Origin: an uncultured Nitrospiraceae bacterium | GTDB taxonomy: Bacteria; Nitrospirota; Thermodesulfovibrionia; Thermodesulfovibrionales; UBA1546 | Length of the DNA: 33,933 nucleotides | Assembly (NCBI GenBank): GCA_964532335.1 | Contig: CAZHHV010000001.1 | Coordinates: 3,327 to 37,259, forward strand | Direction of reading: 5' to 3' | Shown here: positions 6,449 to 33,042 of the stretch, one piece after another | How the letters are laid out: each line of letters starts with the position of its first letter | How positions within the stretch are numbered: the stretch's first letter is position 1 | The notes under the pieces: model-generated | Seen by the model: only the letters and a program-made list of their open reading frames with translations | Told to the model about the DNA's origin: nothing | Databases searched by the model: none | Translations under genes and position numbers: made by a program

Positions 6449-6468
6449 CAAAATCCTCCTTCACAATT

Positions 6469-6534
6469 TGTCATTCCGAGCATTGCGAGGAATCTCGCTT
6501 TTTGAGATTGCTTCGGCTTTGCCTCGCAATGACA
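6469..6534. repeat. Intergenic palindromic element (TGTCATTCCGAG...CTCGCAATGACA), nuoN-nuoM junction
   Basis: The terminal inverted repeat matches at 11 of 12 positions. There is an internal perfect 10 bp IR, cattgcgagg (6481-6490) paired with cctcgcaatg (6522-6531), plus nested short stems. Confidence 0.8.
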
Positions 6535-6536
6535 AC

Positions 6537-8075: not shown

Positions 8076-8093
8076 TGCTTACTCCGACTCACC

Positions 8094-8171
8094 GTCATTC
8101 CTGCGGAGGCAGGAATCCAGGCTTGCCATAGAAATAGAAACTCTGGATTCCGCATCAAGTGCGGAATGACA
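8094..8171. repeat. GTCATTCC...GGAATGACA double-hairpin element, nuoM-nuoL junction
   Basis: The sequence is gtcattccTGCggagGCAggaatccag, then a 22 nt spacer, then ctggattccGCAtcaagTGCggaatgaca. The reverse complement of the right arm is identical to the left arm of the element at 17653. Confidence 0.85.
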
Positions 8172-8226
8172 GACTTGTTGATGACTTCTTTAGAGATTTG
8201 ACAATTCATTTTTTCTCCTCATCCAC

Positions 8227-10146
8227 CTACCTCAACAACATCACTGCCATTATTATCAACAAGCCCAGCGCCATTATTGCTGCATAGTGCTGTAACAAAC
8301 CTGTCTGGACTTTCCTCAGAATCCGGCTGAATTGTCCGATCCCTTTTGGGACACCATTAACAATAGCCTCAATAATCCTTGCATCCGTAATCCCGATGAG
8401 TATATTTTTGGCTGTCCAGATTGTTGGCCTCACGATTATAAAACTGTAAAGTTCATCCACATAGTATTTATTCCAGAGTATTTTATATGCGGCATTGAAT
8501 TTCTGAGCGAGCATGACAGGGATATCAGTCTTTGCAAGATAGAATAATGCTGCAAGCCCTATCCCTGAAAAACCTGCGATTACTGATATTGCCATCACCA
8601 TCCATTCCTCTGCATGTGTGCCGTGCGCTTCGGGATGCCCGAGCACAGGTTTTAAAAATTCCGTGAAATGCACGCCTCCTCCAAGCAGATGGGGAATCCC
8701 AATCCATCCTGATGCAACAGCGCCGACGCAGAGAATCACCAATGGTATTGTCATGGCCTTTGGAGATTCATGGAGATGATGTTCCTGTTCGTGCGTGCCC
8801 CGGAATTTTCCGTGGAACGTGAGGAATATAAGCCTGAATGAATAAAATGCTGTAAGGAACGCAACAACAGTCCCGATAGCCCACACGAATTTCCCCACAG
8901 GACTCTGCCCTGAATATGCAAGCCAGAGTATTTCATCCTTGCTGAAGAATCCTGCAAAGCCGGGCACGCCTGCAATGCTCAATGACGCAAAGAGCATTGT
9001 CCAGTATGTAATTGGCATATATTTCTTAATGCCGCCCATCTTCTGAAGGTCAAGCTCTCCTGACATTGCGTGCATTACGCTCCCTGCGCACAGGAAAAGA
9101 AGGGCTTTAAAAAATGCATGTGTGTAAAGATGGAACATTCCTGCGGTGTAAGCTCCGACTCCTGCTGCAAGGAACATATATCCGAGTTGGCTGATGGTTG
9201 AATACGCTATAATCCTTTTTATATCATTCTGTACAAGGCCGATAGTCGCAGCAAAGAGTGATGTTATAGCCCCTGTTAATGCAACCACTATAAGCGCTGT
9301 TTCAGAAAGGCTGAATATCGGACTGCACCTTGCAACGAGGAAAACACCTGCCGTAACCATTGTTGCCGCGTGTATCAGCGCGCTGACAGGGGTAGGACCC
9401 TCCATTGCATCAGGAAGCCAGACATGAAGCGGCATCTGCGCTGACTTCCCAATTGAGCCGCAGAAAAGAAGAAGCGCAATCAATGTCATAAGATGCACGT
9501 CATATCCAAGGAAATTAATTGTTTGTGCTGCAAGGCCCTTTGCCTGTGAAAAGACAGGCTCATAATAAACGGTTCCGAATGTGAGGAATATCATTATTAT
9601 TCCGAGACCGAAGCCGAAGTCGCCAAACCTGTTCACTATAAAAGCCTTTTTGCCTGCGTCAGAGGCTGACTTCTTGTCAAAGTAATATCCTATGAGAAAG
9701 TATGAACACAAGCCGACCCCTTCCCATCCAAAATACAACTGGAGGAAGTTATTAGCCATAACAAGCATGAGCATACAGAAAGTAAATAGACTGAGATATG
9801 CAAAAAACCTGTAATATCCTTTATCTCCATGCATATAACCAACAGAATATATATGTATGAGGGTACTGCAGGTTGTTACAACAACAAGCATTACCGCAGT
9901 AAGCGGGTCAATAAGAAAACCCACAGAGACCTTGAATTCGCCGGAAACAATCCATGAGTAGATGTCTTCATTTATAACCTTGCCTGACAGGACATCAGGC
10001 AGTGTCATTACAGTCACAACCCATGACCCGGCAACCGCAAGTATTGATACCCAGTGGCTATGCTCCTTCAGATACTTCCTGCCGAAAAGAATATTTATCA
10101 AAAAAGCGGCAAGCGGCAGAAATGGTATTAAAAGATAGTTGTTCAT
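8227..10146 (-). CDS. nuoL: NADH-quinone oxidoreductase subunit L
   Basis: It is a 639 aa antiporter-like subunit with a long C-terminal extension, containing MPLHVWLPDAMEGPTPVSALIHAATMV. Confidence 0.95.
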   Translation of the reverse strand: MNNYLLIPFLPLAAFLINILFGRKYLKEHSHWVSILAVAGSWVVTVMTLPDVLSGKVINEDIYSWIVSGEFKVSVGFLIDPLTAVMLVVVTTCSTLIHIYSVGYMHGDKGYYRFFAYLSLFTFCMLMLVMANNFLQLYFGWEGVGLCSYFLIGYYFDKKSASDAGKKAFIVNRFGDFGFGLGIIMIFLTFGTVYYEPVFSQAKGLAAQTINFLGYDVHLMTLIALLLFCGSIGKSAQMPLHVWLPDAMEGPTPVSALIHAATMVTAGVFLVARCSPIFSLSETALIVVALTGAITSLFAATIGLVQNDIKRIIAYSTISQLGYMFLAAGVGAYTAGMFHLYTHAFFKALLFLCAGSVMHAMSGELDLQKMGGIKKYMPITYWTMLFASLSIAGVPGFAGFFSKDEILWLAYSGQSPVGKFVWAIGTVVAFLTAFYSFRLIFLTFHGKFRGTHEQEHHLHESPKAMTIPLVILCVGAVASGWIGIPHLLGGGVHFTEFLKPVLGHPEAHGTHAEEWMVMAISVIAGFSGIGLAALFYLAKTDIPVMLAQKFNAAYKILWNKYYVDELYSFIIVRPTIWTAKNILIGITDARIIEAIVNGVPKGIGQFSRILRKVQTGLLQHYAAIMALGLLIIMAVMLLR

Positions 10147-10453: not shown

Positions 10454-10467
10454 AGCTTGCTCCGCAA

Positions 10468-10529
10468 GAATTCAAAATTTAAAATTGAAAATTCAAAATT
10501 CTTGAATATTGGATATTGAATATTGAATC
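10468..10529. repeat. AT-rich two-armed tandem-repeat hairpin, nuoK-nuoJ junction
   Basis: The left arm has about 8-9 nt units (aaaattcaa / aaattgaaa). The centre is attcaaAATTCttgaat. The right arm has 8 nt units (atattgga / tattgaat). The arms are only partly complementary. Confidence 0.6.
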
Positions 10530-10538
10530 TTCTTTTCA

Positions 10539-11051: not shown

Positions 11052-11068
11052 CACACGCTCCGCTTTTC

Positions 11069-11146
11069 TGTCATTCCAGCAGTTCTTAAGCGGGAATCCA
11101 GAAGATTAATTAAAAGACTGGATTCCGTGTCAAGCACGGAATGACA
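11069..11146. repeat. GTCATTCC...GGAATGACA double-hairpin element, nuoJ-nuoI junction
   Basis: The sequence is tgtcattcc...gggaatccag, then a spacer, then ctggattccGTGtcaagCACggaatgaca. The reverse complement of the right arm is identical (29 nt) to the left arm of the element at 25976. Confidence 0.85.
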
Positions 11147-11186
11147 TTTTTTATTGTCCTTTGTGTCTCTTTGAGATATATGTGTT

Positions 11187-11738
11187 TTATTTTGCATTCT
11201 TAACTCCCCTAAACATCGCCTGGCCTTCATATCCATGGAAGTCCTCTGCTTTCGGTCTCCAGAAATCTCTGAAATATCTCCTGCCTTTCTCTCCTGCAAA
11301 ATATTTATCCCAGTTAGAGAGAAGTTTTTCTTTCGTCATATAAAAAGGCTCTCTTGAATAATCCGAATATTCGTAATGCTCGCTCAATGTGATTGCGCCG
11401 AAAGGACATGCCTCAACGCAGAACCCGCAGTAAATGCATCTGAGAACCTCTATCTCATACCTGTCCACAACCTTTGTATGGTCTTCGCCGTCCGATGTGT
11501 AGATGTATATGCACTTTGACGGGCAGTAAGCTCCGCAGAGTCCGCAGCCAACACACTTCATCCTGCCATTTTCATCCTTCGCAAGCGCATGAAGCCCCCT
11601 GAACCCCGGCTTCACAGGCCTTTTAACCTTGGGATAGCGCCTGGTCACAGCAGGTGTGAACATGGTTTTGAGAGTCAATGCAAGACCCTTCAGAATCTCC
11701 ACAAAAAATATAGTCCTTATTAATTTAGCGGCTGTCAT
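11187..11738 (-). CDS. nuoI: NADH-quinone oxidoreductase subunit I (2x[4Fe-4S] ferredoxin)
   Basis: Two CxxCxxCxxxCP motifs are present (CVGCGLCGAYCP, CIYCGFCVEACP). The start is uncertain: ATG at 11738, or TTG at 11774 in the ORF track. Confidence 0.9.
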   Translation of the reverse strand: MTAAKLIRTIFFVEILKGLALTLKTMFTPAVTRRYPKVKRPVKPGFRGLHALAKDENGRMKCVGCGLCGAYCPSKCIYIYTSDGEDHTKVVDRYEIEVLRCIYCGFCVEACPFGAITLSEHYEYSDYSREPFYMTKEKLLSNWDKYFAGEKGRRYFRDFWRPKAEDFHGYEGQAMFRGVKNAK

Positions 11739-11785
11739 GCTGAATAAAATGAATTGCCTCGTAGTAAGTTGCAAGGCAGAAAGTC

Positions 11786-11861
11786 TGTCATTCCGGCTTG
11801 TCCGGAATCTTTTTTTGTTTTTAAAAAGGATTCCCGACGCGCTTTGCTTGCGGGAATGACA
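11786..11861. repeat. GTCATTCC...GGAATGACA element, nuoI-nuoH junction
   Basis: The sequence is tgtcattccGGcttgtCCggaatc, then a T/A-rich centre, then ggattcccgacgcgctttgcttgcgggaatgaca. Confidence 0.8.
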
Positions 11862-11898
11862 ACTGTTAGGTTTTTAATTGTCGAAGCATTAATGTGTT

Positions 11899-12951
11899 TC
11901 ATACCAATATTTTCACTAATCCAGTTACTACTATATTCAATAAAGCTAATGGGATTAATATCTTCCATCCTATAGCCATAAGCTGGTCATACCTGTATCT
12001 CGGCAGTGTTGCCCTGGCCCAATAATAAAAGAACATAAAGGCATAAACCTTTATCAGAAACCACACAATACCGGGCACATTCAGCAAGAAAGGCATTGCA
12101 TCTGAAATAAACTTCGGTATTGTCCACCCTCCCAAAAAACACAATGCCGCTATAGAAGACATTATCAGCATCGCCGTGTATTCGCCGAGGAAAAATAGTG
12201 CGAACCTGAATCCGCTGTATTCCGTAAAATATCCTGCAACAAGCTCGCTTTCCGCCTCCGGCAGATCAAAAGGGAGCCTGTTCGTCTCTGCGAATGCAGC
12301 AACAACAAATATAAAGAAACCTAAAAACTGCGGTATGGCAAACATTCCTGCAGGATATTGATGCTGTGCCCTGACAATATCAGAAAGGTTAAGGGAACCT
12401 GCCATCATCATAACGCCCACAAGGCTAAGGCCCATTGCAATCTCATAACTGATTACCTGTGATGCTGACCTCAGCCCGCCAAGGAATGAATATTTGGAGT
12501 TTGACGCCCACCCTGATAATATAATTCCATAAGCTCCGAGAGAAGACATTGCAAAAAGAAAAAGCAGGCCTATATTTATGTGAGCTATCACAAAGCCGTC
12601 GAAAAACGGAAGCACTGACAATGACGTGAGAGCCGAAACCATGAATATGACAGGCGCAAGATAGAACAACGGCTTATCTGCATTTGCAGGTATAATGTCT
12701 TCTTTAAAGAACAGTTTTATCCCGTCTGCAATCGGCTGTAATAATCCATGCCATCCTACTTCAATGGGGCCAAGCCTTACCTGCATGTGACCTATTACTT
12801 TGCGCTCCCAGTAAGTTGCATAAGCAACATGAAGAAGCGTTATTCCAAGGACAACGGCGATATTTACGAGAATAATCCCAATATCTATCCCAAGCTTAAT
12901 CATAGGGTTCATTGCAGCCGCATTATCTATAAACTGAAGAATGTCGTTCAT
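11899..12951 (-). CDS. nuoH: NADH-quinone oxidoreductase subunit H
   Basis: It is a 350 aa polytopic protein with ND1/NuoH motifs (ERKVIGHMQVRLGP, FAETNRLPFDLPEAESELVAGY). Its start overlaps the nuoG stop (ATGA). Confidence 0.95.
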   Translation of the reverse strand: MNDILQFIDNAAAMNPMIKLGIDIGIILVNIAVVLGITLLHVAYATYWERKVIGHMQVRLGPIEVGWHGLLQPIADGIKLFFKEDIIPANADKPLFYLAPVIFMVSALTSLSVLPFFDGFVIAHINIGLLFLFAMSSLGAYGIILSGWASNSKYSFLGGLRSASQVISYEIAMGLSLVGVMMMAGSLNLSDIVRAQHQYPAGMFAIPQFLGFFIFVVAAFAETNRLPFDLPEAESELVAGYFTEYSGFRFALFFLGEYTAMLIMSSIAALCFLGGWTIPKFISDAMPFLLNVPGIVWFLIKVYAFMFFYYWARATLPRYRYDQLMAIGWKILIPLALLNIVVTGLVKILV

Positions 12952-15620
12952 AAACCAGCCTTCTCTATAGCTACTGTATTCCCATCCAGAACAGGGGCCC
13001 TTGTAACAGGCTCTATATCATAGCCCATCAATCTATATGCGCTCTTGCCTTCAAAATTATTAGTGAGCATGACTGAAAAATTGTCTAATGCTTTATCGAT
13101 AACCACAGGCAGTTCAATTGAACCAGTCTTTGTGGAAACTCTGACAACTTCACCCTCTTTAAAGGAAAGCTCCTTAGCTGTATCCGGACTTATTCTTACA
13201 ACCGCCTCAGGATATATCTTCACAAGTGCAGGCACCCTTCTGCTCAAAGTGCCTGAATGGAATAGCGGCCTTTCAATTCTAAGATAAAGTTTCCCGTTAA
13301 CACTAAGTCTCTCTGCATTATGCGCCTGAATCTCTTCCATCATATCCCTTAATGGTTCTCCCTTATAAGGATAAATTCCCTCTCCTTTTTCTATATCTTC
13401 ATATGTAAGGTTTTTATGTAAAGGGGATGCCTTGCAAATCTCATTGAATATATCTTCAACATTTGAGCAATCGAACTTCTTACCCATATTCTTTGCGATA
13501 TTAGAGATAATCCTCCAGTCCTCCATCCCCTCCCTGTTTACTGCCTTTCTCACACGCTGTATTCTTCTTTCCATGTTTGTGAATGTGCCGTCCTTCTCAG
13601 CCCAGCTAAGCGCAGGCAGCACAACATCGGCAAGCATCCCTGTTTCTGTAAGAAATATGTCCTGCACAACAAGGAACTCGATATTTTTAAGCGCTGATTC
13701 CGCTGAATTAGAATCAGGAAGATTATAAGCAGGATTTTCACCCATTACATACATTGCTTTCAGAGAGCCGTTTCTCGCAGTGTCTATCATCTCAAATATT
13801 GTAAGCCCTTGTTTTTCAGGTATCTCACTCTTCCAGATGCTTTCGTATCTTCTTCTGAACTCCACATAAGAAACGGGCCTGTATCCTGGCAGTATATCAG
13901 GTGCGCATCCCATGTCAAGAAGTCCCTGCTCATTTGCCCTGTCAGAAAGCAGATAGATCCTTCCGTTAATAAGATAGTTTATTGCTGATAGGAGCAGGAG
14001 CTTGTAGCTTGCTCCATTACTCTGTGTCGTCTCCTTACCTATTGCTATTGATGGGTTTGTGGATTCTGAAAGGATATTCAAAAACTCATTAAACTCTTTC
14101 TCTCCGATATTGCAGATATTCTTCACATCCTCAACAGAGGTGTTTATATCCTTTATCTTTGCCTCAAGTTTAGGATTTGCATCCGAAAGTCCTTTCTTAT
14201 TTTTTAGTGCAGTAACAATACCTTCAAGCAGAACATCTTCTGTGTATAAGACCGGCACAAGCTTTTGTGGACTGAAATATTCAAGACCTTTGAAATTCCC
14301 TATTGTCAGTATGTTACCACCATTTCTTGAACATGCCCTTATCTGAAGCCCGAGGATAGGATTTATTGTTGTTGGGTCTCCGCCGATCACAAATACAAGA
14401 TCAGAATTCGAAAGACCGGATATTATGTTTGCTGTTGCGCCTTGCCCAAAGATATTCTCTATAAAATTCTGGGCGCCTGCAAAGCCTGTCCTTGCAGTGC
14501 TGTCAATGTTATTTGTCCCGAGCGCAACTCTCATAAATTTCTGGAATATATAATTGTCCTCATTCGTGCATCTCGGTGAGGCAATTCCAGCTATTGCAGA
14601 ATTGCCATACTTCTCTTTAATCTCTGATAGTTTTTTTGCAACAAGGCTTATGGCCTCTTCCCATGTAGCTTCTCTGAAGAGAGACGAGAGACGAGTGACG
14701 AGTGACGAGTTTAATTCAGACATCCATTGCTTATCGTCCTTCGTCCTTCGTCCTTCGTCCTTACTTTCCCTCGGAGCTATTCTTATAAGAGGTGTTGTCA
14801 GCCTCTCTTTGCTTCCTACAAACTCATATCCGAATCTCCCCCTCGTACAGAGAAGCCCGTTATTAACAACAGAACCGATTCTGGGAACAACCCTCTTAAT
14901 CACATCATCACGAACCTGAACAATAAGAGTACATCCAACACCGCAATAGGGACAGATTGTCTCTGTCTCATTCACCATCTGCCACGGCCTGTAACTGTGC
15001 CTGTGGAGTCTTGACATGACTGCTCCGACAGGGCATACAGAGATACAGTTCCCGCAGTATTCGCAATCATATTTGCCGCCCGAGAAAGGCTCAATGTGGG
15101 AATGGCCTCCCCTGCTTATAACGTCAATCGCCGAGGCGCCCTGAACCCCCTCGCACATCCTGACGCATCTGGTGCACATAATACATCTTTCCATATTTCG
15201 AACAATAACAGGGTCTTCGAGGCTTTCAGGAACTTTTCTCTTCTTTTCTTTATATCTACCCTTTGCAGGTCCGTATTTTTCTACAAGGTCCTGCAATTCG
15301 CACTCACCTGCCTTATCGCACACAGGACAATCGAGCGGATGGTTAATAAGCAGAAATTCGAGTGTGCCTCTTCTGACATTGGCTATCTGTTCTGTTTCTG
15401 TTCTGACAACCATTCCGTCAGCAACCATAAGAGTACAGGCTGTCTGAAGTCTTGGTATCTTTTCGACTTCGACAAGACACAGCCTGCATCCGCCGTATCT
15501 TCCAAGCTGTTCATGCCAGCAGAGAGTGGGTATCTTTATCCCTGCAGACCTCGCAGCCTCAAGCACAGTGACAGGCTTCTCTAATTTAATCTCTTTGCCG
15601 TTAATGGTGACTGTAATCAT
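12948..15620 (-). CDS. nuoG: NADH-quinone oxidoreductase subunit G (75 kDa type, with non-catalytic molybdopterin-like domain and an in-frame repeat insertion)
   Basis: The N-terminal [2Fe-2S] region (CRLCLVEV), the His-ligated cluster HPLDCPVCDKAGEC, and the 4Fe-4S motifs are present. In the molybdopterin-like domain, STARTGFAG replaces the FDH Cys/Sec-His site. Confidence 0.93.
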   Translation of the reverse strand: MITVTINGKEIKLEKPVTVLEAARSAGIKIPTLCWHEQLGRYGGCRLCLVEVEKIPRLQTACTLMVADGMVVRTETEQIANVRRGTLEFLLINHPLDCPVCDKAGECELQDLVEKYGPAKGRYKEKKRKVPESLEDPVIVRNMERCIMCTRCVRMCEGVQGASAIDVISRGGHSHIEPFSGGKYDCEYCGNCISVCPVGAVMSRLHRHSYRPWQMVNETETICPYCGVGCTLIVQVRDDVIKRVVPRIGSVVNNGLLCTRGRFGYEFVGSKERLTTPLIRIAPRESKDEGRRTKDDKQWMSELNSSLVTRLSSLFREATWEEAISLVAKKLSEIKEKYGNSAIAGIASPRCTNEDNYIFQKFMRVALGTNNIDSTARTGFAGAQNFIENIFGQGATANIISGLSNSDLVFVIGGDPTTINPILGLQIRACSRNGGNILTIGNFKGLEYFSPQKLVPVLYTEDVLLEGIVTALKNKKGLSDANPKLEAKIKDINTSVEDVKNICNIGEKEFNEFLNILSESTNPSIAIGKETTQSNGASYKLLLLSAINYLINGRIYLLSDRANEQGLLDMGCAPDILPGYRPVSYVEFRRRYESIWKSEIPEKQGLTIFEMIDTARNGSLKAMYVMGENPAYNLPDSNSAESALKNIEFLVVQDIFLTETGMLADVVLPALSWAEKDGTFTNMERRIQRVRKAVNREGMEDWRIISNIAKNMGKKFDCSNVEDIFNEICKASPLHKNLTYEDIEKGEGIYPYKGEPLRDMMEEIQAHNAERLSVNGKLYLRIERPLFHSGTLSRRVPALVKIYPEAVVRISPDTAKELSFKEGEVVRVSTKTGSIELPVVIDKALDNFSVMLTNNFEGKSAYRLMGYDIEPVTRAPVLDGNTVAIEKAGL
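14683..14761. repeat. Two-armed heptamer tandem repeat inside nuoG coding sequence
   Basis: There are four heptamers, GACGAGA plus 3x GACGAGT, at 14683-14710. A 23 nt spacer follows, then 4x TCGTCCT at 14734-14761. The GACGA and TCGTC cores are complementary, 5 of every 7 nt. Confidence 0.85.
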
Positions 15621-15667
15621 GATTTATCCAAATCTGCTAATACGTCCCTCTCTAAAACCCCACTTTT

Positions 15668-15731
15668 TGTCATTCCCGCTTGTCGGGAATCTTTCTTTTC
15701 CCAGAAGGATTGCGGACAAGCTGCAATGACA
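15668..15731. repeat. GTCATTCC...GCAATGACA element, nuoG-nuoF junction
   Basis: The sequence is tgtcattcccgcttgtcgggaatctttcttt...ggattgcggacaagctgcaatgaca. It is nearly identical to the copy at 17047. Confidence 0.85.
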
Positions 15732-15743
15732 TGGAAATACTTT

Positions 15744-17003
15744 TTATTCAAATTTACACTTCCCATCTTTTATATGTTCCTCAAACTCATTTCTGAAATG
15801 TTTTATGAAATTCTGGACAACAGATGCTGCTCCGTCTCCCAGCGGGCAGAATGTCTTGCCAAGCATATTCCCTGAAACAGAAAGCAAAAGTTCTATATCT
15901 CCTTCCACGCCTTCGCCGTTTTCTATCCTTTCAAGAATACTTCTCAGCCATCCTGTGCCTTCACGGCATGGTGTGCACTTTCCGCATGATTCATGCTCAA
16001 GGAATTTCAGCGCCCTATGGCATACTTTAACGAGACACACTGTTTCATCCATCACAATCACGGCGCCTGAGCCAAGCATGCTCCCGTGCTTTGGCATATT
16101 TACAAAATCCATAGGGCAGTCTATCTTATCCGCAGGAAGCACCGGCGTTGTAATCCCGCCCGGAATCACAGCCTTAAGATTCTTCCCTCCCTTAATTCCT
16201 CCGCAGTGTTTATAGATTATGTCCCGCAGGATTGTGCCCATAGGCAGTTCATAAACACCGGGTTTTTCAACATGACCGCTTACACAATAGAGTTTGGGGC
16301 CCGGGCAATCAGAACTTCCGATCTTTGAATATTCCTCACCGCCAATTTCTATAATAAGGGGAATGTTTGACAGCGTCTCTACGTTATTGACAACAGTAGG
16401 TTTTGCAAAAACGCCCACATTAACAGGGAACGGCGGCCTCGTCCTCGGCTGTCCCCTATCCCCCTCCAGTGATTCTATTAAAGCGGTCTCTTCGCCGCAT
16501 ATGTATGCGCCTGCGCCGCGATGAACAGCGAGATGAAACTTTATGCCCTTCCCTAAAATATCATCGCCGAGAAGATTGTTTTCATATGCCTGAGCGATTG
16601 CCCTATTCAGGATATGATATGCGCCCGGATACTCGCCTCTCAGGTATATGTATCCGTACTGTGCTCCGATTGCATAACCTGATATGACCATGCCCTCTAT
16701 CAGGAGATGGGGATTCTTCTCAAGTATAGGCCTGTCTTTGAATGTGCCCGGTTCTCCTTCATCTGCATTGCATAGGAGATATTTCGGGAATTTCGTATCA
16801 GCGCATGCAAAGGACCACTTCATTGCAACCGGGAACCCTGCTCCGCCCCTTCCCCTTAACCCTGCTTTTTTCACTATATCAGTTATGTCGTGCGGCTTGT
16901 CCTCAAACGCCTTCGGAAGACTCCTGTATCCGCCAATTTTTTTGTACTCGTTAATATCAGCTGAATTCGGGTTGTCTATGTTCTTTAAAAGTACTTTTTC
17001 CAT
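15744..17003 (-). CDS. nuoF: NADH-quinone oxidoreductase subunit F (FMN/NADH-binding)
   Basis: GRGGAGFPVAMKW, CNADEGEPGTFKDR and the N3 cluster motif ESCGKCTPCREG are present. Confidence 0.95.
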   Translation of the reverse strand: MEKVLLKNIDNPNSADINEYKKIGGYRSLPKAFEDKPHDITDIVKKAGLRGRGGAGFPVAMKWSFACADTKFPKYLLCNADEGEPGTFKDRPILEKNPHLLIEGMVISGYAIGAQYGYIYLRGEYPGAYHILNRAIAQAYENNLLGDDILGKGIKFHLAVHRGAGAYICGEETALIESLEGDRGQPRTRPPFPVNVGVFAKPTVVNNVETLSNIPLIIEIGGEEYSKIGSSDCPGPKLYCVSGHVEKPGVYELPMGTILRDIIYKHCGGIKGGKNLKAVIPGGITTPVLPADKIDCPMDFVNMPKHGSMLGSGAVIVMDETVCLVKVCHRALKFLEHESCGKCTPCREGTGWLRSILERIENGEGVEGDIELLLSVSGNMLGKTFCPLGDGAASVVQNFIKHFRNEFEEHIKDGKCKFE

Positions 17004-17046
17004 AACCTTAAACTTTTAATAGAAATTCATAAGTGAAACCACGGTT

Positions 17047-17107
17047 TGTCATTCCCGCTTGTCGGGAATCTTTCTTTAGGAAGGATTGCGGACAAGCCGC
17101 AATGACA
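17047..17107. repeat. GTCATTCC...GCAATGACA element, nuoF-nuoE junction (with outer imperfect IR 17029-17042 / 17124-17137)
   Basis: The first 31 nt are identical to the copy at 15668, and the right arm differs at 1 nt. The outer ataagtgaaaccac / gtggtattacttat pair is complementary at 12 of 14 positions. Confidence 0.85.
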
Positions 17108-17168
17108 GAACAAAAATGGTCATGTGGTATTACTTATGGTCTTATTAGTAACTTCTAACTCTTTCCTC

Positions 17169-17633: not shown

Positions 17634-17652
17634 TTCCTTAAATTTTCCTCGC

Positions 17653-17723
17653 CGTCATTCCGCACTTGATGCGGAATCCAGAGCTTCTGATGAGAACTGG
17701 ATTCCCGCCTGCGCGGGAATGAC
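17653..17723. repeat. GTCATTCC...GGAATGACA double-hairpin element, nuoE-nuoD junction
   Basis: The sequence is gtcattccGCActtgaTGCggaatccag, then a 15 nt spacer, then ctggattccCGCctgcGCGggaatgaca. Confidence 0.85.
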
Positions 17724-17740
17724 AAAACTAAAAACTGTAT

Positions 17741-18931
17741 TCACCTATCGCATTCTCCCAAGACTATGTCAATACTCCCTATGTTTGCGATAACGTCTGC
17801 GACAAATCCACCCTCGCATAATTTCGGCAGAATTGATGCATGAACAAAAGAGGGCGCTCTCACTCTCATCCTGTACGGCTTGCCGGTGCCGTCGCTTACA
17901 AAATAAAATCCGAGTTCCCCTTTAGGAACCTCTGTAGCAGAATATATCTCTCCTTCAGGAACAACCGGACCTTTTGTTATCAGGACAAACTGATGTATGA
18001 GATGTTCCATGTCCTTTAAGACCATATCTTTGGGAGGAAGGGTAAACTTGGGGGCATTAGCCATTACAGGGCCTGCAGGCAGTTTTTCTATGCACTGTTT
18101 AATTATCCTGTTTGCCTGCTTCATCTCGCCCATCCTGACAAGATACCTGTCATAGCAATCTCCGTTTTTCCCCAAAGGGACATCAAACTCAACCCTGTCA
18201 TAAGCATCATAAGGGGCATGTTTTCTTACGTCATAGTTCACGCCGGAGCCCCTCAGCATACCGCCTGTAAGCCCCCAGTTGACAGCCTCTTCTGCGGAAA
18301 TAACGCCTATGCCGACTGTCCTCTTCTTCCAAACCCTGTTTTCAGTGACAAGTGTTTCATAGTCATCCATCCTGTCAGGAAACTCAAGAACAAACTCATA
18401 GAGTTCATCAAGAAATTCCTGTGAAATATCATTCCTAACTCCGCCAATCCTCGGATAACTTACCGTGAGCCTTGCCCCGCACAATGTTTCAAAAAGGTCA
18501 AGGATGCGCTCTCTTTCCCTGAATGCATATAAAAATGGAGTTGTTGCGCCGATATCAAGGACATGTGTTCCAAGCCATATAATGTGGCTTGAAATCCTTC
18601 CCATCTCAGCGACCATGGTTCTGATAAACTTTGCCCTTTCAGGCGCTTCAATGCCAAAAAGTTTTTCAACGGCATTTACATAGCCGACATTGTTGTTCAT
18701 GGATGATATGTAATCGAGTCTGTCGGTTAGGGGAAGTGCAGAAAAATACGTCCTGTTTTCTCCGAGTTTCTCTATCCCCCTGTGGAGATAACCAACATGA
18801 GGAGCGCATTTAATAACAGTCTCGCCGTCAAGGGTAAGCACAAGCCTAAGAACCCCATGGGTTGCCGGATGCTGGGGCCCCATGCTGATGGTTAGTTCCC
18901 TTGTCTCAAATGTCTTTTCTATTTGTTCCAT
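17741..18931 (-). CDS. nuoD: NADH-quinone oxidoreductase subunit D
   Basis: It is 396 aa of the 49 kDa / NiFe-large-subunit-like family ([14 protein letters not shown]..., ends ...DIVLGECDR). Confidence 0.95.
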
Positions 18932-18938
18932 AGTTTTT

Positions 18939-18990
18939 GGTGTCAGTGTCAGTTGTCAGTAGCTGACACTAATCACTGTCACTATTCACT
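18939..18990. repeat. Two-armed 6-7 nt tandem-repeat hairpin, nuoD-nuoC junction
   Basis: The left arm is tgtcag tgtcag ttgtcag, the loop is tag, and the right arm is ctgacac taatcac tgtcac tattcac. The perfect core palindrome tgtcagTAGctgaca lies at 18954-18968. Confidence 0.75.
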
Positions 18991-18994
18991 TTAG

Positions 18995-19528
18995 TTATTC
19001 CTGCCATTCAAACTCTTTAAATCTCTTTGCCCTGTCAAGAACTGCCTTAAACCCTGACCATTCCTTCTCAGTCCCCTTCAGCGGATAATCCTTTCTCAGT
19101 GGATGGCCCTCCCAGTCCTCAGGCATAAGGACTCTCCTGAGATCCGGATTACCTTTAAAAATAATCCCGAACATGTCATAGCATTCCCTTTCATGCCAGT
19201 TTGCGCCGGCCCATACAGCAGTAACAGAATCAATCTCAAGACTGCTCTCAGGCACCTCTGCCTTTAACCTTATTGCATGACAGCGCTTTATAGAATAAAG
19301 ATGATAGACAACCTCAAACCTCTTTTCATTTCTCCCCTGATAGTCCACACCGCATACATCAACAAGATAGTCAAAACAAAGGTCAGAATCGTCATGGAGA
19401 TACCTGCATATTTCAAGGATTCTGTCTTTCTTTAATGTGACAGCGGCCTGCTCCCTGAATTCCTTTACCTCAAGGACTTCATCCGGAAACTTATCTTTAA
19501 TCTTACTCGCTATCTCTAAAGGTTCCAT
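18995..19528 (-). CDS. nuoC: NADH-quinone oxidoreductase subunit C
   Basis: It belongs to the 30 kDa subunit family (ANWHERECYDMFGIIFKGNPDLRR) and is not fused to nuoD. Confidence 0.93.
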   Translation of the reverse strand: MEPLEIASKIKDKFPDEVLEVKEFREQAAVTLKKDRILEICRYLHDDSDLCFDYLVDVCGVDYQGRNEKRFEVVYHLYSIKRCHAIRLKAEVPESSLEIDSVTAVWAGANWHERECYDMFGIIFKGNPDLRRVLMPEDWEGHPLRKDYPLKGTEKEWSGFKAVLDRAKRFKEFEWQE

Positions 19529-19536
19529 GTTCTTAG

Positions 19537-19602
19537 TGCAGTAGCTCAGCAGCGCAGTAGCGCAGTAGTATCCTTACTGCTGCTCTGTTGCTCTGCTGCT
19601 CT
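19537..19602. repeat. Two-armed octamer tandem-repeat hairpin, nuoC-nuoB junction
   Basis: The left arm is tgcagtag ctcagcag cgcagtag cgcagtag. The loop is tatcct. The right arm is (t)tactgctg ctctgttg ctctgctg ctct, which is partly complementary. Confidence 0.7.
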
Positions 19603-19606
19603 ATTT

Positions 19607-20119
19607 TTACCTCCACCTGCTCCATCTGAAATGCTCGCCTTTTATCTTTTCCTGAAGCTTTATTATCCCTTCAAGCAGAGTCTCAGGCCTTGGAGGACAG
19701 CCCGGTATATAAACATCCACAGGCAGGAAACTGTCGCATCCCTGCACGGTGCTGTATGTATTGAATATGCCTCCTGAACATGCGCAGCTCCCCATTGAAA
19801 TAACATATCTTGGTTCCGGCATTTGGTCATAGACCCTTCTCACAATCTCAGACATCTTCTTCGTTACAGTGCCTGCGACAATCATAAGGTCCGCCTGTCG
19901 TGGAGAGCCTCTGAAGATAACCCCCATCCTGTCCAGGTCATAGTGTGACGATCCCGTCGTCATCATTTCAATGGCGCAGCATGCAAGCCCGAAGGTCACG
20001 GGCCATAAGGACGAGCTTCTTCCCCAGTTGATGAGCTTGTCCATTGAGGTGATAATGATATTGGGCGACAGTATTTTTGTGCCTTTTTCAACCTCAACAA
20101 GATTAACCGCTGTGTCCAT
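19607..20119 (-). CDS. nuoB: NADH-quinone oxidoreductase subunit B (N2 cluster)
   Basis: It belongs to the PSST family ([11 protein letters not shown]...GSCACSGG...CPPRPE). Confidence 0.95.
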
Positions 20120-20142
20120 TAATATATACCTTACCCCTTTTT

Positions 20143-20226
20143 TTGCGTTTATTGCGTTATAGCGTTATTGCGTTCATTGTTTTCATTATTTTACGCTACA
20201 ACGCTATAACGCTTCACGCCATAACG
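20143..20226. repeat. Two-armed octamer tandem-repeat hairpin, nuoB-nuoA junction
   Basis: The left arm carries GCGTT every 8-9 nt (at 20145, 20154, 20162, 20170). The right arm carries ACGC every 8 nt (at 20193, 20201, 20209, 20217). There is a perfect 13 bp pairing of gcgttatagcgtt (20154-20166) with aacgctataacgc (20200-20212). Confidence 0.8.
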
Positions 20227-20231
20227 ATTTT

Positions 20232-20603
20232 TCAGTCCCATTTAAATGCCTCCTTTTTCCATGCATAAACATAGCCGACAAAAAGTATCACTATAAAAAT
20301 AACCATCTCAATAAATGCGTATAGTCCAATCCTGTCAAATACAACAGCCCAGGGATAAAGGAAAACAGCCTCAACGTCAAAGATAACAAAGAGCATGGCG
20401 ATAATATAGAATTTAACAGAAAATCTGTATCGCGGCTCTCCGACAGGCAGGTTGCCTGATTCATAAGGCATAAGTTTTTCAGGGTATGGCCTTTTCAGTC
20501 TGAGGAGTTCACCGATTAATAAGGCGCCCATTCCGAAGGCCGTTGCGACCATCAAAAATATAAGAACAGGCAAATAATCCGAAGGCAAATAAGTTCCGGG
20601 CAT
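20232..20603 (-). CDS. nuoA: NADH-quinone oxidoreductase subunit A
   Basis: It is 123 aa with 3 TM segments of the ND3 family (YESGNLPVGEPRYRFSVKFYIIAMLFVIFDVE) and is the first gene of the operon. Confidence 0.93.
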   Translation of the reverse strand: MPGTYLPSDYLPVLIFLMVATAFGMGALLIGELLRLKRPYPEKLMPYESGNLPVGEPRYRFSVKFYIIAMLFVIFDVEAVFLYPWAVVFDRIGLYAFIEMVIFIVILFVGYVYAWKKEAFKWD

Positions 20604-30400: not shown

Positions 30401-30587
30401 TAGGGTTAAGAACTTTAAAGAGGTGGAATTAGGTTTCACTGAAGAGACGGCAGTTAAAGAGGCAAGGAGATGCCTAAGATGTGAATTAGGAACGATGGAA
30501 GGCACACAAGCAATGCAGGAAATGCGAGAAAAGAAAAAAATCGAAAAAGAAAAATTACAGAAGGCAGGAGGAGTCAAAAATGATTGA
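27447..30587 (+). CDS. Fusion protein: N-terminal [2Fe-2S] domain plus NuoF/HydB-like FMN/NADH module plus GltD/NfnB-like Fe-S/FAD/NAD(P)H module
   Basis: Counting from the TTG at 27444: CAGTGC...GCNGFCAQGP lies in residues 10-57. GRGGAGFPTGLKW, CNGDEGDPGAF and ESCGKCPPCRVG lie in residues 165-462. From about residue 530 the GltD-like region begins, with CQHTCPIG...VCGRVCTHPCESNC, KVAIIGSGPGGL, IGIIGGGNAAVD and GVFAGGDAV. The ATG at 27447 has the SD GAGGAGAG upstream. Confidence 0.85.
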   Translation: MEKFRANVMLCAGTGCIASGTMKVKSALVEELRKRGLENEIQVIMTGCNGFCAQGPIVSVYPDNIFYQALKVEDVPHLVEEHFLKGRPVKRLMYQEPDKKITVPAMGEIPFFKHQVLRVLRNKGLIDPEKIEEYIARDGYLAAAKALTEMTPEEIIKVVKDSGVRGRGGAGFPTGLKWEFASKSKADQKFMLCNGDEGDPGAFMDRSVMESDPHSVIEGMIIGASAIGASKGVIYVRAEYPLAVKRLQLAIDQCYDAGLLGKNILGSDFNFDLSIYLGAGAFVCGEETALMRSIEGKRGMPIPRPPFPAQKGLWDKPSVLNNVETLAQIAPIILNGAEWYKSLGTEKSTGTKVFALTGAISNVGLVEVPMGIPLRTIIYDIGGGIRKGKFKAVQLGGPSGGCIPESLLDTPVTYEDIVATGAIVGSGGMVVLDDSNCMVSLARFFLGFTTEESCGKCPPCRVGTKILLDMLTDITEGRGKETDVETLEDLSRDIIATSLCGLGQTAPNPILTTIKYFKDEYETHIKYKRCEAMVCKEIISSPCQHTCPIGTEVPVYAALIAQRRFDEAVQVIRKDNPLASVCGRVCTHPCESNCKSGEAGKPLAVRALKRFATDYGLQTGYKLPIKRKEPKNKKVAIIGSGPGGLTAGCFLAIEGYDVTIFEAKSVLGGMLRVAIPTYRLPRELLDADIDAIKEAGVKFQTNTALGKEISINSLFNDGYEAIFISVGAHKPMDLGIPGEDSEGVIGSLKFLEAVNLGKDIKVGKRIGIIGGGNAAVDAARAAHRLPNTEKVTLIYRRTRAEMPAFKEEVDAAIEEGIDIQFLSAPTRVLTQNGKLAGIEAIRMELGEPDASGRRKPVPISGSEFIIELDTLIRAIGEAPDITFLGGQGLEISKRNTLVVDPETLATKRKGVFAGGDAVTGPKTVIHAIAAGKLAAESIDKYLRGESIEREYNVTRPSMYIEPVELTDEEIESAARPEMSHLPIKDRVKNFKEVELGFTEETAVKEARRCLRCELGTMEGTQAMQEMREKKKIEKEKLQKAGGVKND

Positions 30588-33042
30588 GCTTACAATCAAT
30601 GACAAAAAAATAACTGCAGAGGAAGGCTCCACAATCCTCCAAACCGCAACAAAAAATGGTATTAAGATACCAAATCTATGCTTTGACAAAAGACTCAGGC
30701 CTTATGGCGGATGCAGGCTTTGTGTTGTTGAGGTAGAGAAACAGCCGAGGCTTTTTGCTGCATGCTCAACCCCTGTTGCTCCTGGAATGGTTGTTAAAAC
30801 CGATACTCCTAAACTCAGAAAAGCCCGCCAGACAGTGCTCGAACTTCTTCTTGTGCATCATCCGCTGGACTGCCCAATATGCGATAAGGCAGGCGAATGC
30901 GACCTTCAGGACCTCGCATATGAATTTGGCAAACCTGAAGGACGTTTCATAAGACACAGAAAAGAAACCCCGCCTGATGTCAGAGGACCACTAATAGAGC
31001 TTACTTCAAACAGATGCATTCTATGTGGCAAATGTGTACGAATCTGTAGTGAATATCAAGGAAGAGGGGCATTGGGACTGATAGGAAGGGGATTTCCTAC
31101 TGTTGTTCAGCCCGCATTCGGTGAAATCCTTGAATGCGACTACTGCGGCCAGTGTATTGATATATGCCCGACAGGCGCGCTTTTGAGTAAGCCGTTCAAG
31201 TTTCAGGCACGTGCATGGTTTCTCGATGAAAAAGACACAATCTGTCCTTTCTGCGGATGCGGCTGCACTCTTACTTTGGGTATAAGAGAAGGGAAGATAT
31301 TAAGATCAAGAGGCCAGGAAGACAATGGAAGGAGCGAAGGCAACCTGTGCGGCAGGGGCAGGTTTGGATTTGATTACATATACAATGAGAGCCGTCTTAA
31401 AACGCCTTTGATAAGAAAAGAAGGTTCACTGGTTCCTGCAACATGGGATGAGGCATTATCATATATAAGCGATAGCCTGAATTTTATTATCAATTCTTAC
31501 GGAAAAACATCAGTAGGCGCTCTCGGCTCTCACAGATGTACGAATGAAGACAACTTTATGCTGAAAAAGTTCATGATGAACGTTGTTGGTTCAAACAACT
31601 TTGACTCTGCTGCCGCATTCGGATATTCAAAGGTTCAGCAGGCTCTCGATAAGGCATTCGGATTAAAGACCCATCCGATTAACCTGAAATCACCATTGGG
31701 CAAGGAAGTTATTCTGATAATTGAATCGGATATCAGCATTACACATCCTGTATTCGGACTTAATATCCTTCAGGCAAAAAGAGAAGGCTCAAGGCTTATT
31801 GTCGCTGATTCAAGGGAGACAAAACTCACAAGGCATAGTACGACTCAACTAAAAATGAGACAGGGCGCTTCTGTTGCGCTGCTCAATGGAATAATGAAGA
31901 TAATAATAGATAAGGGTCTTTTCAACAGGGAGATAGTTTCCAAGACCCCGGGGTTTTCAGAATTCGAAAAGGGCCTTAATGATTACATCTCTGAAGATGT
32001 CTCAAGGATTACAGGGATTTCCGTAGAGGAACTCGTATCTGCTGCAGAGACTATTGCAAGGGCTAAAAGCAGAATGATCTCATTCACAATCAATTCGACA
32101 GAGAACACAAAAGGAGCAGATCTGGTTTTTGCAGCTTCGAATCTTGTAATCCTCTTAGGCGATGAGACAGATACATTGCAGATCCCTGCTGAATATGCAA
32201 ACACATTTGGAGCTTACAAAATGGGAATAAGGCCGGATGCAGATGGAAAGAATCTATTTGATATGCTTTATGAATCGGGCTCACTCCATGCCCTTTATAT
32301 AATGGGCGAGGATCCTGTTTCAGCATTTCCTTACAATTCAAAGATTATAAGGACACTTAAATCGCTCGAACTGCTTGTTGTTCAGGATATTGCCCTGACA
32401 GAGACAGCCAAGCTTGCGCATGTTGTGCTTCCTGCATCAAGCTGGGCAGAGAAAGACGGCACATTCATTAATGCCGAGGGGGTTGCGCAGACATTGAAAA
32501 AGGCAATAGACGCCCCCGGCCAATCACTGCCAGACTGGCAGATCCTGAGAAATCTCTCGTTATCAATGGGGACTGATATTGGGATAAGGAGTATAGAAGA
32601 CATCTCAAGGGAGATAAACTCGTCAATCGTCAATCGTCAATCGTCAATCGTCAATCGTCAATCGTTTAATCCTGTGTTATATACACGCGGAGAAGAGCCT
32701 GATACAGAATATCCATTGTCACTTGTCACAAGAGATATCCTTCAGCATTCAGGAACGATGACAACACGCTCAAAGGCGCTTGACCTTGTTGTTCCCGAAC
32801 CTTTTCTTGAGATTAATGATGAGGATGCCAAAAAATTCGGCATATCTGACAACAGCCATGTTAAGGTTTCATCAAGGAGAGGCACAGTATATCTGAAGGC
32901 AAAGGTTTCTGATGTTATACCTTCTGGAACTGTTTTCACTTCAGTTCATTTTCCTCACGGCCGTGTTAATGCGCTCACAAATCTCTCAGAAAATGGCACA
33001 GCAACCCCAGACGCTGTAAGAGTAGAAAGGGTTATAATATAA
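30580..33042 (+). CDS. NuoG-like / formate-dehydrogenase-alpha-like Fe-S molybdopterin-fold subunit lacking the catalytic Cys/Sec-His
   Basis: It has an N-terminal [2Fe-2S] region (CRLCVVEV), HPLDCPICDKAGEC, 2x[4Fe-4S] motifs, and the motif CPFCGCGCTL...LCGRGRFG. NNFDSAAAFGYS occupies the position of NNvD.CARvUH in FDH. The SD is AGGAGG and the start overlaps the upstream stop. Confidence 0.85.
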   Translation: MIELTINDKKITAEEGSTILQTATKNGIKIPNLCFDKRLRPYGGCRLCVVEVEKQPRLFAACSTPVAPGMVVKTDTPKLRKARQTVLELLLVHHPLDCPICDKAGECDLQDLAYEFGKPEGRFIRHRKETPPDVRGPLIELTSNRCILCGKCVRICSEYQGRGALGLIGRGFPTVVQPAFGEILECDYCGQCIDICPTGALLSKPFKFQARAWFLDEKDTICPFCGCGCTLTLGIREGKILRSRGQEDNGRSEGNLCGRGRFGFDYIYNESRLKTPLIRKEGSLVPATWDEALSYISDSLNFIINSYGKTSVGALGSHRCTNEDNFMLKKFMMNVVGSNNFDSAAAFGYSKVQQALDKAFGLKTHPINLKSPLGKEVILIIESDISITHPVFGLNILQAKREGSRLIVADSRETKLTRHSTTQLKMRQGASVALLNGIMKIIIDKGLFNREIVSKTPGFSEFEKGLNDYISEDVSRITGISVEELVSAAETIARAKSRMISFTINSTENTKGADLVFAASNLVILLGDETDTLQIPAEYANTFGAYKMGIRPDADGKNLFDMLYESGSLHALYIMGEDPVSAFPYNSKIIRTLKSLELLVVQDIALTETAKLAHVVLPASSWAEKDGTFINAEGVAQTLKKAIDAPGQSLPDWQILRNLSLSMGTDIGIRSIEDISREINSSIVNRQSSIVNRQSFNPVLYTRGEEPDTEYPLSLVTRDILQHSGTMTTRSKALDLVVPEPFLEINDEDAKKFGISDNSHVKVSSRRGTVYLKAKVSDVIPSGTVFTSVHFPHGRVNALTNLSENGTATPDAVRVERVII
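32621..32665 (+). repeat. Perfect heptanucleotide tandem repeat (CGTCAAT)x6 plus CGT inside the NuoG-like gene
   Basis: Read directly from the sequence: six exact 7 nt units followed by cgt. It translates as SSIVNRQSSIVNRQS, a 7 aa periodicity arising from 21 nt. Confidence 0.95.

Follow-up and report, generated by a model that had tools for sequence, protein, structure and literature searches.

The tandem-armed hairpins found at junctions of the nuo (complex I) operon in a Thermodesulfovibrionia genome are, in our judgment, probably copies of a genome- and lineage-wide class of non-coding hairpin elements. We regard them as gene-less relatives of intervening-sequence (IVS)-type cassettes, similar in kind to repetitive extragenic palindromes (REP) or miniature inverted-repeat transposable elements (MITE). 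The stretch analyzed, hereafter the window, comprises 33,933 nucleotides (G000:C1:3327-37259, where G000 is the genome and C1 the contig) of a metagenome-assembled genome (MAG) of 2.05 Mb, with 233 contigs and 43% G+C. An element typically consists of a G-rich array of short tandem repeats, a short loop, and a complementary C-rich array. The hairpins are discrete units copied around the genome, in many families. They occupy gaps between co-directional genes and are found, too, inside reading frames that appear intact, and genes of the PF05635 family (23S rRNA intervening-sequence protein, S23p) are bracketed by the same kinds of arms. As judged from alignments between sister species, the arms change by whole units, and gain, loss, and family replacement of elements make for fast turnover.

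A sequence-only reading of the window had pointed out a shared design, two facing arrays of short repeats, at the nuoD/C, nuoC/B, nuoB/A, and nuoK/J junctions and inside nuoG. The junction labels agree with gene boundaries in the list of open reading frames (ORFs), and Tandem Repeats Finder (TRF) called arrays at all of these places, with periods of 6 to 8 reminiscent of the short tandemly repeated repetitive (STRR) sequences that the reading had invoked. nuoA to nuoD were placed using the ORF list and tblastn against 45 Nitrospirota loci, and identical contigs carry the Pfam labels Oxidored_q4, Oxidored_q6, and Complex1_30kDa in this region (17741-20603). NuoC relatives assign the genome to the Nitrospirota (Thermodesulfovibrionia), the nearest named one being from a Lac Pavin "Nitrospirae bacterium" MAG and the next from UBA8922. 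The genes and flagged elements are as follows, with arrays as called by TRF.

20232-20603, minus strand: nuoA
20120-20231, minus strand: nuoA-nuoB spacer, 112 nt, with a hairpin at 20145-20219
20143-20179: left array of the nuoA/B element, TTGCGTTA in 4.4 copies
20193-20213: facing array of the nuoA/B element, ACGCTACA in 2.6 copies
19607-20119, minus strand: nuoB
19529-19606, minus strand: nuoB-nuoC spacer, 78 nt, with a hairpin of the GCAGTAGC/CTGCTGCT 8-mer family
19534-19568: left array of the nuoB/C element, TAGCGCAG in 4.4 copies
19577-19602: facing array of the nuoB/C element, CTGCTGCT in 3.2 copies
18995-19528, minus strand: nuoC
18932-18994, minus strand: nuoC-nuoD spacer, 63 nt, with a hairpin of the TGTCAG/CTGACA family (AGTG plus 2-3 variable bases)
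18939-18960: left arm of the nuoC/D element, GTGTCA in 3.3 copies (TRF array 18940-18960)
18963-18990: right arm of the nuoC/D element, facing the GTGTCA array
17741-18931, minus strand: nuoD
14675-14762, minus strand: in-frame paired heptamer arrays in nuoG
14675-14710 and 14734-14762, read on the plus strand: TGACGAG in 5.1 copies facing TCGTCCT in 4.1 copies
10454-10538, minus strand: nuoJ-nuoK spacer with AT-rich paired arrays
10469-10501 and 10502-10528: AATTCAA in 4.7 copies abutting TTGAATA in 3.9 copies

Folding of the sense-strand RNA, with z scores against shuffled sequences, gave -32.3 kcal/mol (z -5.3) for the nuoA/B element, -28.8 kcal/mol (z -3.3) for nuoB/C, and -20.6 kcal/mol (z -4.3) for nuoC/D. 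The nuoJ/K element folds weakly, at -15.4 kcal/mol (z -1.4) in the sense and -17.7 kcal/mol (z -2.7) in the antisense orientation, and the nuoG element folds at -33.3 kcal/mol with a z score of -1.7, so that neither the nuoG fold nor the sense-strand nuoJ/K fold is significant relative to shuffles. The arms of the nuoA/B element read on the plus strand as GCGTT(T)ATT/GCGTTATA units at 20143-20179 and ACGCTAYA units at 20193-20226; next on the sense strand come an A-run, a new Shine-Dalgarno sequence (GGGGTAAGG), and a new start codon for nuoB. In nuoG, the sense-strand units are GGACGAA and CTCGTCA, and the reading frame (12948-15620, 890 amino acids) runs unbroken across both arrays. The minimum-energy fold makes up only 9 to 27% of the ensemble of each element, in line with the point of the sequence-only reading that arms of this kind permit many alternative pairings. 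The flagged units TGTCAG, GCAGTAGC, GCGTTATA, AATTCAA, and GACGAGG are all devoid of GGG tracts. An Rfam search returned no match in the window at gathering score, and the flagged region gave chance-level matches only (all E > 0.5). The consensus through the nuo elements is 99.95 to 100% identical to contigs of three other sequencing runs, showing that the elements are not assembly artefacts. A unit variant is present in one 98.5%-identical strain, versus none among the consensus sequences of four samples. The population is represented in runs SRR12113399, SRR12113404, and SRR12113406.

Arrays of this kind abound in the genome. We found 650 non-overlapping arrays with a period of 5 to 10 and at least 2.5 copies, with a sharp peak at period 7. 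Strong arrays of period 7 or 8 (at least 3.5 copies) number 238, or 11.6 per 100 kb, where about 2 are expected from a third-order Markov simulation that yields 0.1 per 100 kb. Their density is about eightfold higher in intergenic than in coding DNA and about 2.4-fold higher in co-directional gaps than in divergent or convergent ones, and long ORFs, as delimited by a crude longest-ORF gene caller, contain around half of all arrays. The sequence-only reading had proposed a genome-wide scan for facing arrays, and a scan of this type gave a clearly non-random result. Neighboring arrays (gap of at most 50 nt, n = 106) form duplexes with a median energy of -24.6 kcal/mol, compared with -7.8 kcal/mol for random partners and -9.1 kcal/mol when the partner is reverse-complemented; 56% of neighbor pairs, as against 6.6% of controls, fall below the 5th percentile of the null. 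The 106 adjacencies compare with about 20 expected by chance, by our own arithmetic from array densities. About one array in four has a complementary partner over and above the control level. A stringent selection yielded 123 strong hairpins; the median hairpin has 24 pairs and an 8-nt loop.

The claim that the unit differs at every site is correct inside the window only, since across the genome units recur as multi-copy families, and every flagged element is a member of such a family or resembles one. The 650 arrays comprise 257 distinct canonical units, of which the commonest are GCTGATA (40 arrays) and CTGACA (38 arrays), and several GCAGCAG-type and GGTGAAT-type units occur 10 to 15 times each. 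The TGTCAG family, with its AGTG plus 2-3 variable bases, is present at 32 genomic loci, nearly all paired. Multi-copy clusters, 15 in number, take in 70 of the 123 strong hairpins. Twenty-five element pairs align through the loop at 85% identity or more, and in many of them the similarity ends 0 to 5 nt from the hairpin ends, the flanks being unrelated. Thus, elements on contigs C22 and C24 are 92% identical over exactly 76 nt, and those on C17 and C90 are 96% identical over 93 nt. The nuoA/B element aligns with two copies on C38 at 87% identity over 83 nt, from hairpin end to hairpin end and including the loop, in a cluster of four copies (the others being C38:9891, C38:10245, and C76:7943). 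The nuoB/C element, one of 17 copies in its cluster, aligns with C30:15330 over precisely the hairpin. Such end-to-end copies at unrelated loci are the hallmark of elements copied as discrete units, not of arrays that expanded locally and independently. Within a family, the two arms of an element pair no better with each other than with swapped arms (p = 0.16). The exact word GTGTCAGTGTCAGT is found in all three other genomes of the genus, is patchy in the order, and occurs in 17 of 301 genomes of the phylum.

The design extends beyond the phylum. Paired 7- to 8-mer hairpins with their own units are found at nuo junctions of Acidobacteriota/Terriglobia, whose NuoC proteins are distant relatives (e.g., loci L072, L080, L133, and L155). 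Because Acidobacteriota carry the same design, the raw TRF density across phyla (score 30) was uninformative, loci of other phyla being equally high.

Comparison with relatives showed that the nuo elements turn over quickly. nuoA to nuoD overlap or nearly abut in most Thermodesulfovibrionia examined. The operon is collinear with that of a sister species, G001, at 90 to 93% nucleotide identity, and the alignment is broken at most gene junctions: G001 has no elements at nuoN/M, nuoK/J, nuoF/E, nuoC/B, or nuoB/A, and its nuoJ/K spacer is only 6 nt long. The nuoA/B junction is empty in the same-genus genomes examined, which have either the ancestral ATGGGACTGA overlap or about 23 nt between the aligned blocks; relative to them, the window has 112 nt after the nuoA stop codon, a new Shine-Dalgarno sequence, and a new NuoB N terminus. 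At nuoB/C, G001 and G198 have an empty junction, G156 and L085 a TGTCAG-family hairpin, and L002 a hairpin of GTAAT units. At nuoC/D, a GCAGCAG-family hairpin is found in G001, L002, and G156, and a GATACAG/ATCATGC-family hairpin in G198, L084, and L086. Close species hold at least four families at nuoB/C and three at nuoC/D. The nuoG site of G001 has a different element, with a C7/G6 palindrome at its core, whose length is exactly equal (103 nt between anchors). On two other contigs as well, the orthologous sites of G001 often hold a different family of the same architecture.

Changes by whole units are seen in a metagenome contig, L085, which carries the orthologous nuoA/B element with one additional 8-nt unit in its right arm and the nuoC/D element of the window with one additional 6-nt unit, also in the right arm. 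The window and L085 versions all still fold, with energies of -15 to -32 kcal/mol. Within the sampled population, the consensus of four samples was identical. G156 is 98% identical to the window in NuoA, NuoB, and NuoD, and L085 is 92 to 95% identical; yet G156 has no nuoA/B insert. That the closer relative does not have it suggests recombination between species, as read from these sequences.

Two long spacers in relatives, of 474 nt at nuoB/C in L038 and 514 nt at nuoE/D in G001, were considered as hiding places of a PF05635 gene. This was rejected, as each has a single ORF that, judged by eye and with no search of protein families made, does not look S23p-like. The ORF between nuoE and nuoD of G001 (155 amino acids; L178:13989-14456, equivalent to G001:C85) looks by eye like a cyclic-nucleotide-binding domain protein, and that between nuoB and nuoC of L038 (148 amino acids; L038:2552-2998) like a CBS-domain protein.

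The link to IVSs comes from PF05635 genes, of which the genome has three, scoring 119 to 137 bits. The gene at C76:8781-9092 is bracketed by eight copies of TAGAGCAG with ACTACTGCTCTCC (AGAGCAG arrays, of the nuoB/C unit family), the gene at C57:2176-2493 by GACGAGG/TTCGTCC arrays, which belong to the nuoG unit family, and that on C124 by TCAGCTC/GCTGACn arrays. The arms of all three cassettes belong to unit families of the gene-less hairpins. Across the order, 34 of 61 genomes have PF05635 genes, with one to nine each. Arrays flank 27 of the 29 genes sampled, at a density of 5.7 per kb compared with 0.57 per kb elsewhere in those loci, and in most sampled cassettes inspection by eye shows the left and right flanks to be complementary. 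Array counts were used because the duplex energy of the 130-nt flanks did not discriminate, each flank already holding hairpins. Nearest pairs of PF05635 proteins share arm units; these pairs sit at orthologous loci, pointing to vertical co-inheritance and not to specificity or independent support. The genome also encodes RNase III (rnc, C20:9095-9484).

The elements have a preferred position and polarity. In the 60 cases with a stop codon, a hairpin, and a start codon in succession, the median distance is 6 nt from the stop codon to the hairpin and 16 nt from the hairpin to the next start codon. The G-rich array is on the 5′ side and the C-rich array on the 3′ side in 88 of 117 hairpins (p = 4e-8), and by eye the sampled PF05635 cassette arms show the same polarity. 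For hairpins inside ORFs genome-wide (n = 73), the antisense strand folds 5.6 kcal/mol more strongly than the mRNA strand (55 versus 18, p = 1e-6); this bias may reflect selection against mRNA structure or a compositional effect.

Several observations weigh against regarding the hairpins as mobile, IVS-related elements. No target-site duplication is evident in the filled/empty comparisons at nuoA/B, nuoB/C, and nuoJ/K, and the events are not clean insertions. No second copy is detectable in the genome for 53 of the 123 strong hairpins. The co-variation of PF05635 proteins and arm units is limited to orthologous loci and provides no independent support, and no PF05635 gene has TGTCAG-family arms in this incomplete assembly. 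The PF05635 protein is a four-helix bundle with no known enzymatic activity. In the genome, we identified no mobilizing enzyme and found no parent insertion sequence. Counts of elements inside genes depend on the crude gene caller. Lastly, intergenic hairpins show no bias in stability toward the sense strand (n = 67, p = 0.36), and selection at the RNA level is therefore not supported. A REP-associated tyrosine transposase (RAYT) was considered as mobilizer. The single RAYT-like Y1_Tnp gene of the genome (G000:C48:2829-3494; L081:1204-1869, minus strand) scores 68.9 bits against NF047646, for which the cut-off is 80, and is flanked by perfect 23-nt inverted repeats, TTAAATGGGGACAGCGCCCATTT. 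Its REP, AAATGGGCGCTGTCCCCATTT, has 10 genomic matches with at most three mismatches, two of which flank the gene. This candidate was rejected, as the gene has its own unrelated REP and no tandem arrays nearby.

Hairpins of this kind might also arise in place, if a short local seed expanded when replication slipped and the second arm was then copied from the first through intrastrand template switching (quasipalindrome correction, or snap-back synthesis); families would in that case be due to convergence or biased mutation and not to copying from site to site. Relatives do differ by whole units, and at C12:14492 all units differ in concert between species (CAGTGAA in G000, AAGTGAA in G001), with the opposite arm matching; at C6:4150, the center is conserved and the arms differ. 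The 257 distinct units in 650 arrays, the 53 singleton hairpins, the tandem arms that in some cases grow outward from an unrelated C6/G6 palindrome core, and the recurrence of the design in unrelated phyla with lineage-specific units all fit local growth. It does not account for copies at unrelated loci that share loops and the order of unit variants, with similarity stopping at the hairpin ends. Moreover, by eye the empty nuoA/B site of the sister species has no evident GCGTTATA seed, and 7-nt units within a reading frame cannot grow singly without a frameshift. We consider an origin in place unlikely. A selected regulatory RNA, in which register-shifting intercistronic stems would tune how strongly complex I subunits are expressed relative to one another, or how stable they are, copy number serving as the knob, appears improbable to us. 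The location in nuo junctions at a median of 6 nt from stop codons and the retention of some hairpin family at nuoC/D across species speak for it, and the idea of tunable register shifting put forward in the sequence-only reading is borne out to the extent that the ensembles hold many registers and that a relative with one extra unit still folds. It fits poorly with the overlapping genes of close relatives at the same junctions, with the same elements inside reading frames of unrelated genes, and with the lack of a sense-strand stability bias in intergenic hairpins and of element-specific covariation of the arms; the identical consensus in four samples gives no sign of phase-like switching.

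The arrays could instead be binding sites, iteron-like, for a protein such as a pentameric S23p/Avd-like four-helix bundle acting on DNA or RNA, with the hairpin being secondary. The nearly invariable bracketing of PF05635 genes by arrays, the shared arm units of nearest PF05635 proteins, and a 6- to 8-nt period that is uniform across unrelated sequences would be expected in that case. We nevertheless find this very doubtful: 257 units face only three PF05635 genes in the genome, the protein/arm matches are at orthologous loci, and in Coxiella the protein is reported as probably not produced in vivo (Warrier et al., PMC4990558). That the hairpins serve as intrinsic transcription terminators or attenuators is highly improbable and was rejected as an explanation. 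The stems are stable and contain GC pairs, and in 19 of 60 cases a T-run comes after the hairpin on the antisense strand, but TAA stop codons, read in complement, account for part of this T-richness. Sense-strand flanks with at least five T in 8 nt after the stem number only 4 of 60, A-runs being more typical there, and this paucity of U-runs argues against termination. In addition, stopping transcription after nuoA, nuoB, or nuoC would abolish complex I.

The sequence-only reading was not aware of a paired-arm arrangement, but it is not undescribed, as Xanthomonas array pairs (PMC4692102) and heptamers in the IVS of Coxiella (PMC4990558) have been published. Two genomes, of Xanthomonas campestris and X. 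axonopodis, have 70 to 75 convergent pairs of GGGAATC heptamer arrays, whose stem-loop potential was noted (Rehm et al. 2015, PMC4692102). Like the elements described here, they are two nearby tandem 7-nt arrays on opposite strands, capable of forming a stem-loop, and are mostly intergenic, in co-directional gaps and nearer the upstream ORF, with variation in length and sequence between close species (PMC4692102). They differ in having one G-tract unit that forms quadruplexes, whereas we found 257 units in many families, mostly without G-tracts and with periods of 6 to 8. The present elements, in another phylum, differ further by their many in-frame copies, their nature as discrete dispersed units, and their link to PF05635.

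IVSs, such as those of Coxiella burnetii and Leptospira, resemble the elements in having a stem of terminal inverted repeats with a PF05635 gene in the loop of full-length copies, an anatomy that is present in full-length cassettes of this genome and order, and in having variable numbers of tandem heptamers in the stem region; they are regarded as selfish. Helices 9 and 25 of 23S rRNA are also sites of IVS insertion. In Coxiella burnetii, the IVS is inserted in helix 45 and has a 28-bp terminal stem that is cut by RNase III, with the S23p ORF in the loop and with 2-3 strain-variable tandem GACAGAT heptamers in the stem region (Warrier et al. 2016, PMC4990558). In contrast to IVSs, which sit in 23S rRNA helices, the flagged elements are located between or inside protein-coding nuo genes and contain no gene. 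Most elements here are gene-less with an 8-nt loop, their whole arms are arrays, and cleavage by RNase III is a prediction.

The REP, bacterial interspersed mosaic element (BIME), and REP doublet (REPIN) sequences of Proteobacteria are likewise short, dispersed extragenic hairpins in multi-copy families that lie just after stop codons in operons. They have a fixed consensus of 20 to 40 nt, unlike the tandem-repeat arms described here, for which we found no cognate RAYT and which have many in-frame copies. Occupancy of REP sites is often conserved even though the sequence is species specific. REPs stabilize the mRNA upstream of them, and when the stop codon is no more than about 15 nt away, they lower translation of the gene before it. 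Rickettsia palindromic elements are small palindromic repeats that are tolerated in frame in conserved genes, as here, but they have a fixed consensus and arms that are not tandem repeats. Cyanobacterial STRR and the TAACTGA repeats of Beggiatoaceae are dispersed tandem heptamers, mainly intergenic, often next to start or stop codons, and of patchy phylogenetic distribution. They are reported as almost entirely one-armed and made of one or few units, whereas about a quarter of the arrays here are paired and the units are highly diverse. Accordingly, 169 direct sets and one inverted set of TAACTGA repeats were described in Beggiatoaceae (MacGregor 2015, PMC4679880). None of the 60 commonest canonical units of this genome matches the units of STRR1 to STRR3, and the host is a member of the Nitrospirota, not a heterocystous cyanobacterium. 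In the library searched, we found no literature on such repeats in Nitrospirota.

A second, unrelated repeat occupies seven other nuo junctions. It is a nested palindrome of about 70-80 nt with the layout GTCATTCC..GGGAATCC-loop-GGATTCC..GGAATGAC and folds at -27 to -51 kcal/mol. Its sites are as follows.

17634-17742: second-family repeat, nuoD/E
17004-17168: second-family repeat, nuoE/F
15621-15746: second-family repeat, nuoF/G
11727-11902: second-family repeat, nuoH/I
11055-11188: second-family repeat, nuoI/J
8049-8227: second-family repeat, nuoL/M
6438-6540: second-family repeat, nuoM/N

This family is also present in the nuoA/B spacer of a distant relative, L041. With the tandem-armed elements, hairpins thus lie at 11 or more junctions of this nuo operon. 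We also observed composite elements, in which tandem 7-mer arms of the CATGATG/GATACAG and TATCCTG types surround a conserved C6/G6 nested palindrome core, CCCCCCTT...AAGGGGGG.

G000:C11:24075-24168: composite element
G000:C5:27762-27857: composite element
G000:C24:10983-11093: composite element

The nuoG site of G001 holds such a composite. Repeat arms thus seem able to grow outward from an unrelated hairpin. Elsewhere in the window, a perfect one-armed heptamer array, TCGTCAA in 6.6 copies (32620-32665), has no facing partner and lies inside an 820-amino-acid ORF (30580-33042).

Under the interpretation that we favor, the copied, gene-less hairpins would be relatives of IVS-type cassettes, which have a stem and an S23p gene in the loop, and a hairpin-dependent mechanism would spread them. 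The elements, which are probably selfish, would persist because slippage leaves a repeat-built stem able to pair and because a tightly coupled operon would tolerate a compact stem in the gap from stop to start codon. In nuo mRNA, intercistronic stems of about 24 bp would form after transcription. By analogy with IVS stems and Escherichia coli REP, these stems would most likely be RNase III cleavage sites and/or barriers to 3′ exonucleases, and the polycistronic nuo message would be split or differentially stabilized as a result. We regard such an effect on mRNA processing as a by-product and not as a selected, tunable function.

The hairpins represent a genuine and informative variant, not a new kind of element, given their resemblance to Xanthomonas repeats and rRNA intervening sequences. 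They also matter in practice, as short-read assemblies break at them, "intergenic" regions are lengthened, and peptide segments are added to conserved proteins. Short-read contigs L082, L083, and L174-L177 terminate within or at the border of elements (e.g., at window positions 11141, 19611, and about 20208), and the repeats are likely a major cause of the fragmentation of the MAG into 233 contigs. Annotation pipelines for Nitrospirota and Acidobacteriota MAGs, as well as operon predictions, should take these elements into account.

For decades, heptamer-type tandem repeats have been recorded in bacteria, yet neither their origin nor their role has found an accepted explanation. In this genome, the paired form has colonized reading frames and even the tightly coupled gene junctions of an essential operon, and it is exchanged or replaced between sister species. 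If the PF05635 link holds, this widespread repeat class would gain a testable partner and, with RNase III, a processing enzyme. A broader proposal, which we put forward tentatively, is that tandem-armed hairpins, including STRR, in cyanobacteria, Xanthomonas, Acidobacteriota, and Nitrospirota are non-autonomous offspring of a single, widespread type of cassette, made of a repeat-array stem and an S23p/Avd-like four-helix-bundle gene. Its protein would recognize the arms and help them spread, and its stems would be processed by RNase III in rRNA or mRNA alike. Should this be true, the STRR puzzle would acquire a molecular partner, and IVSs would represent one landing site among many.

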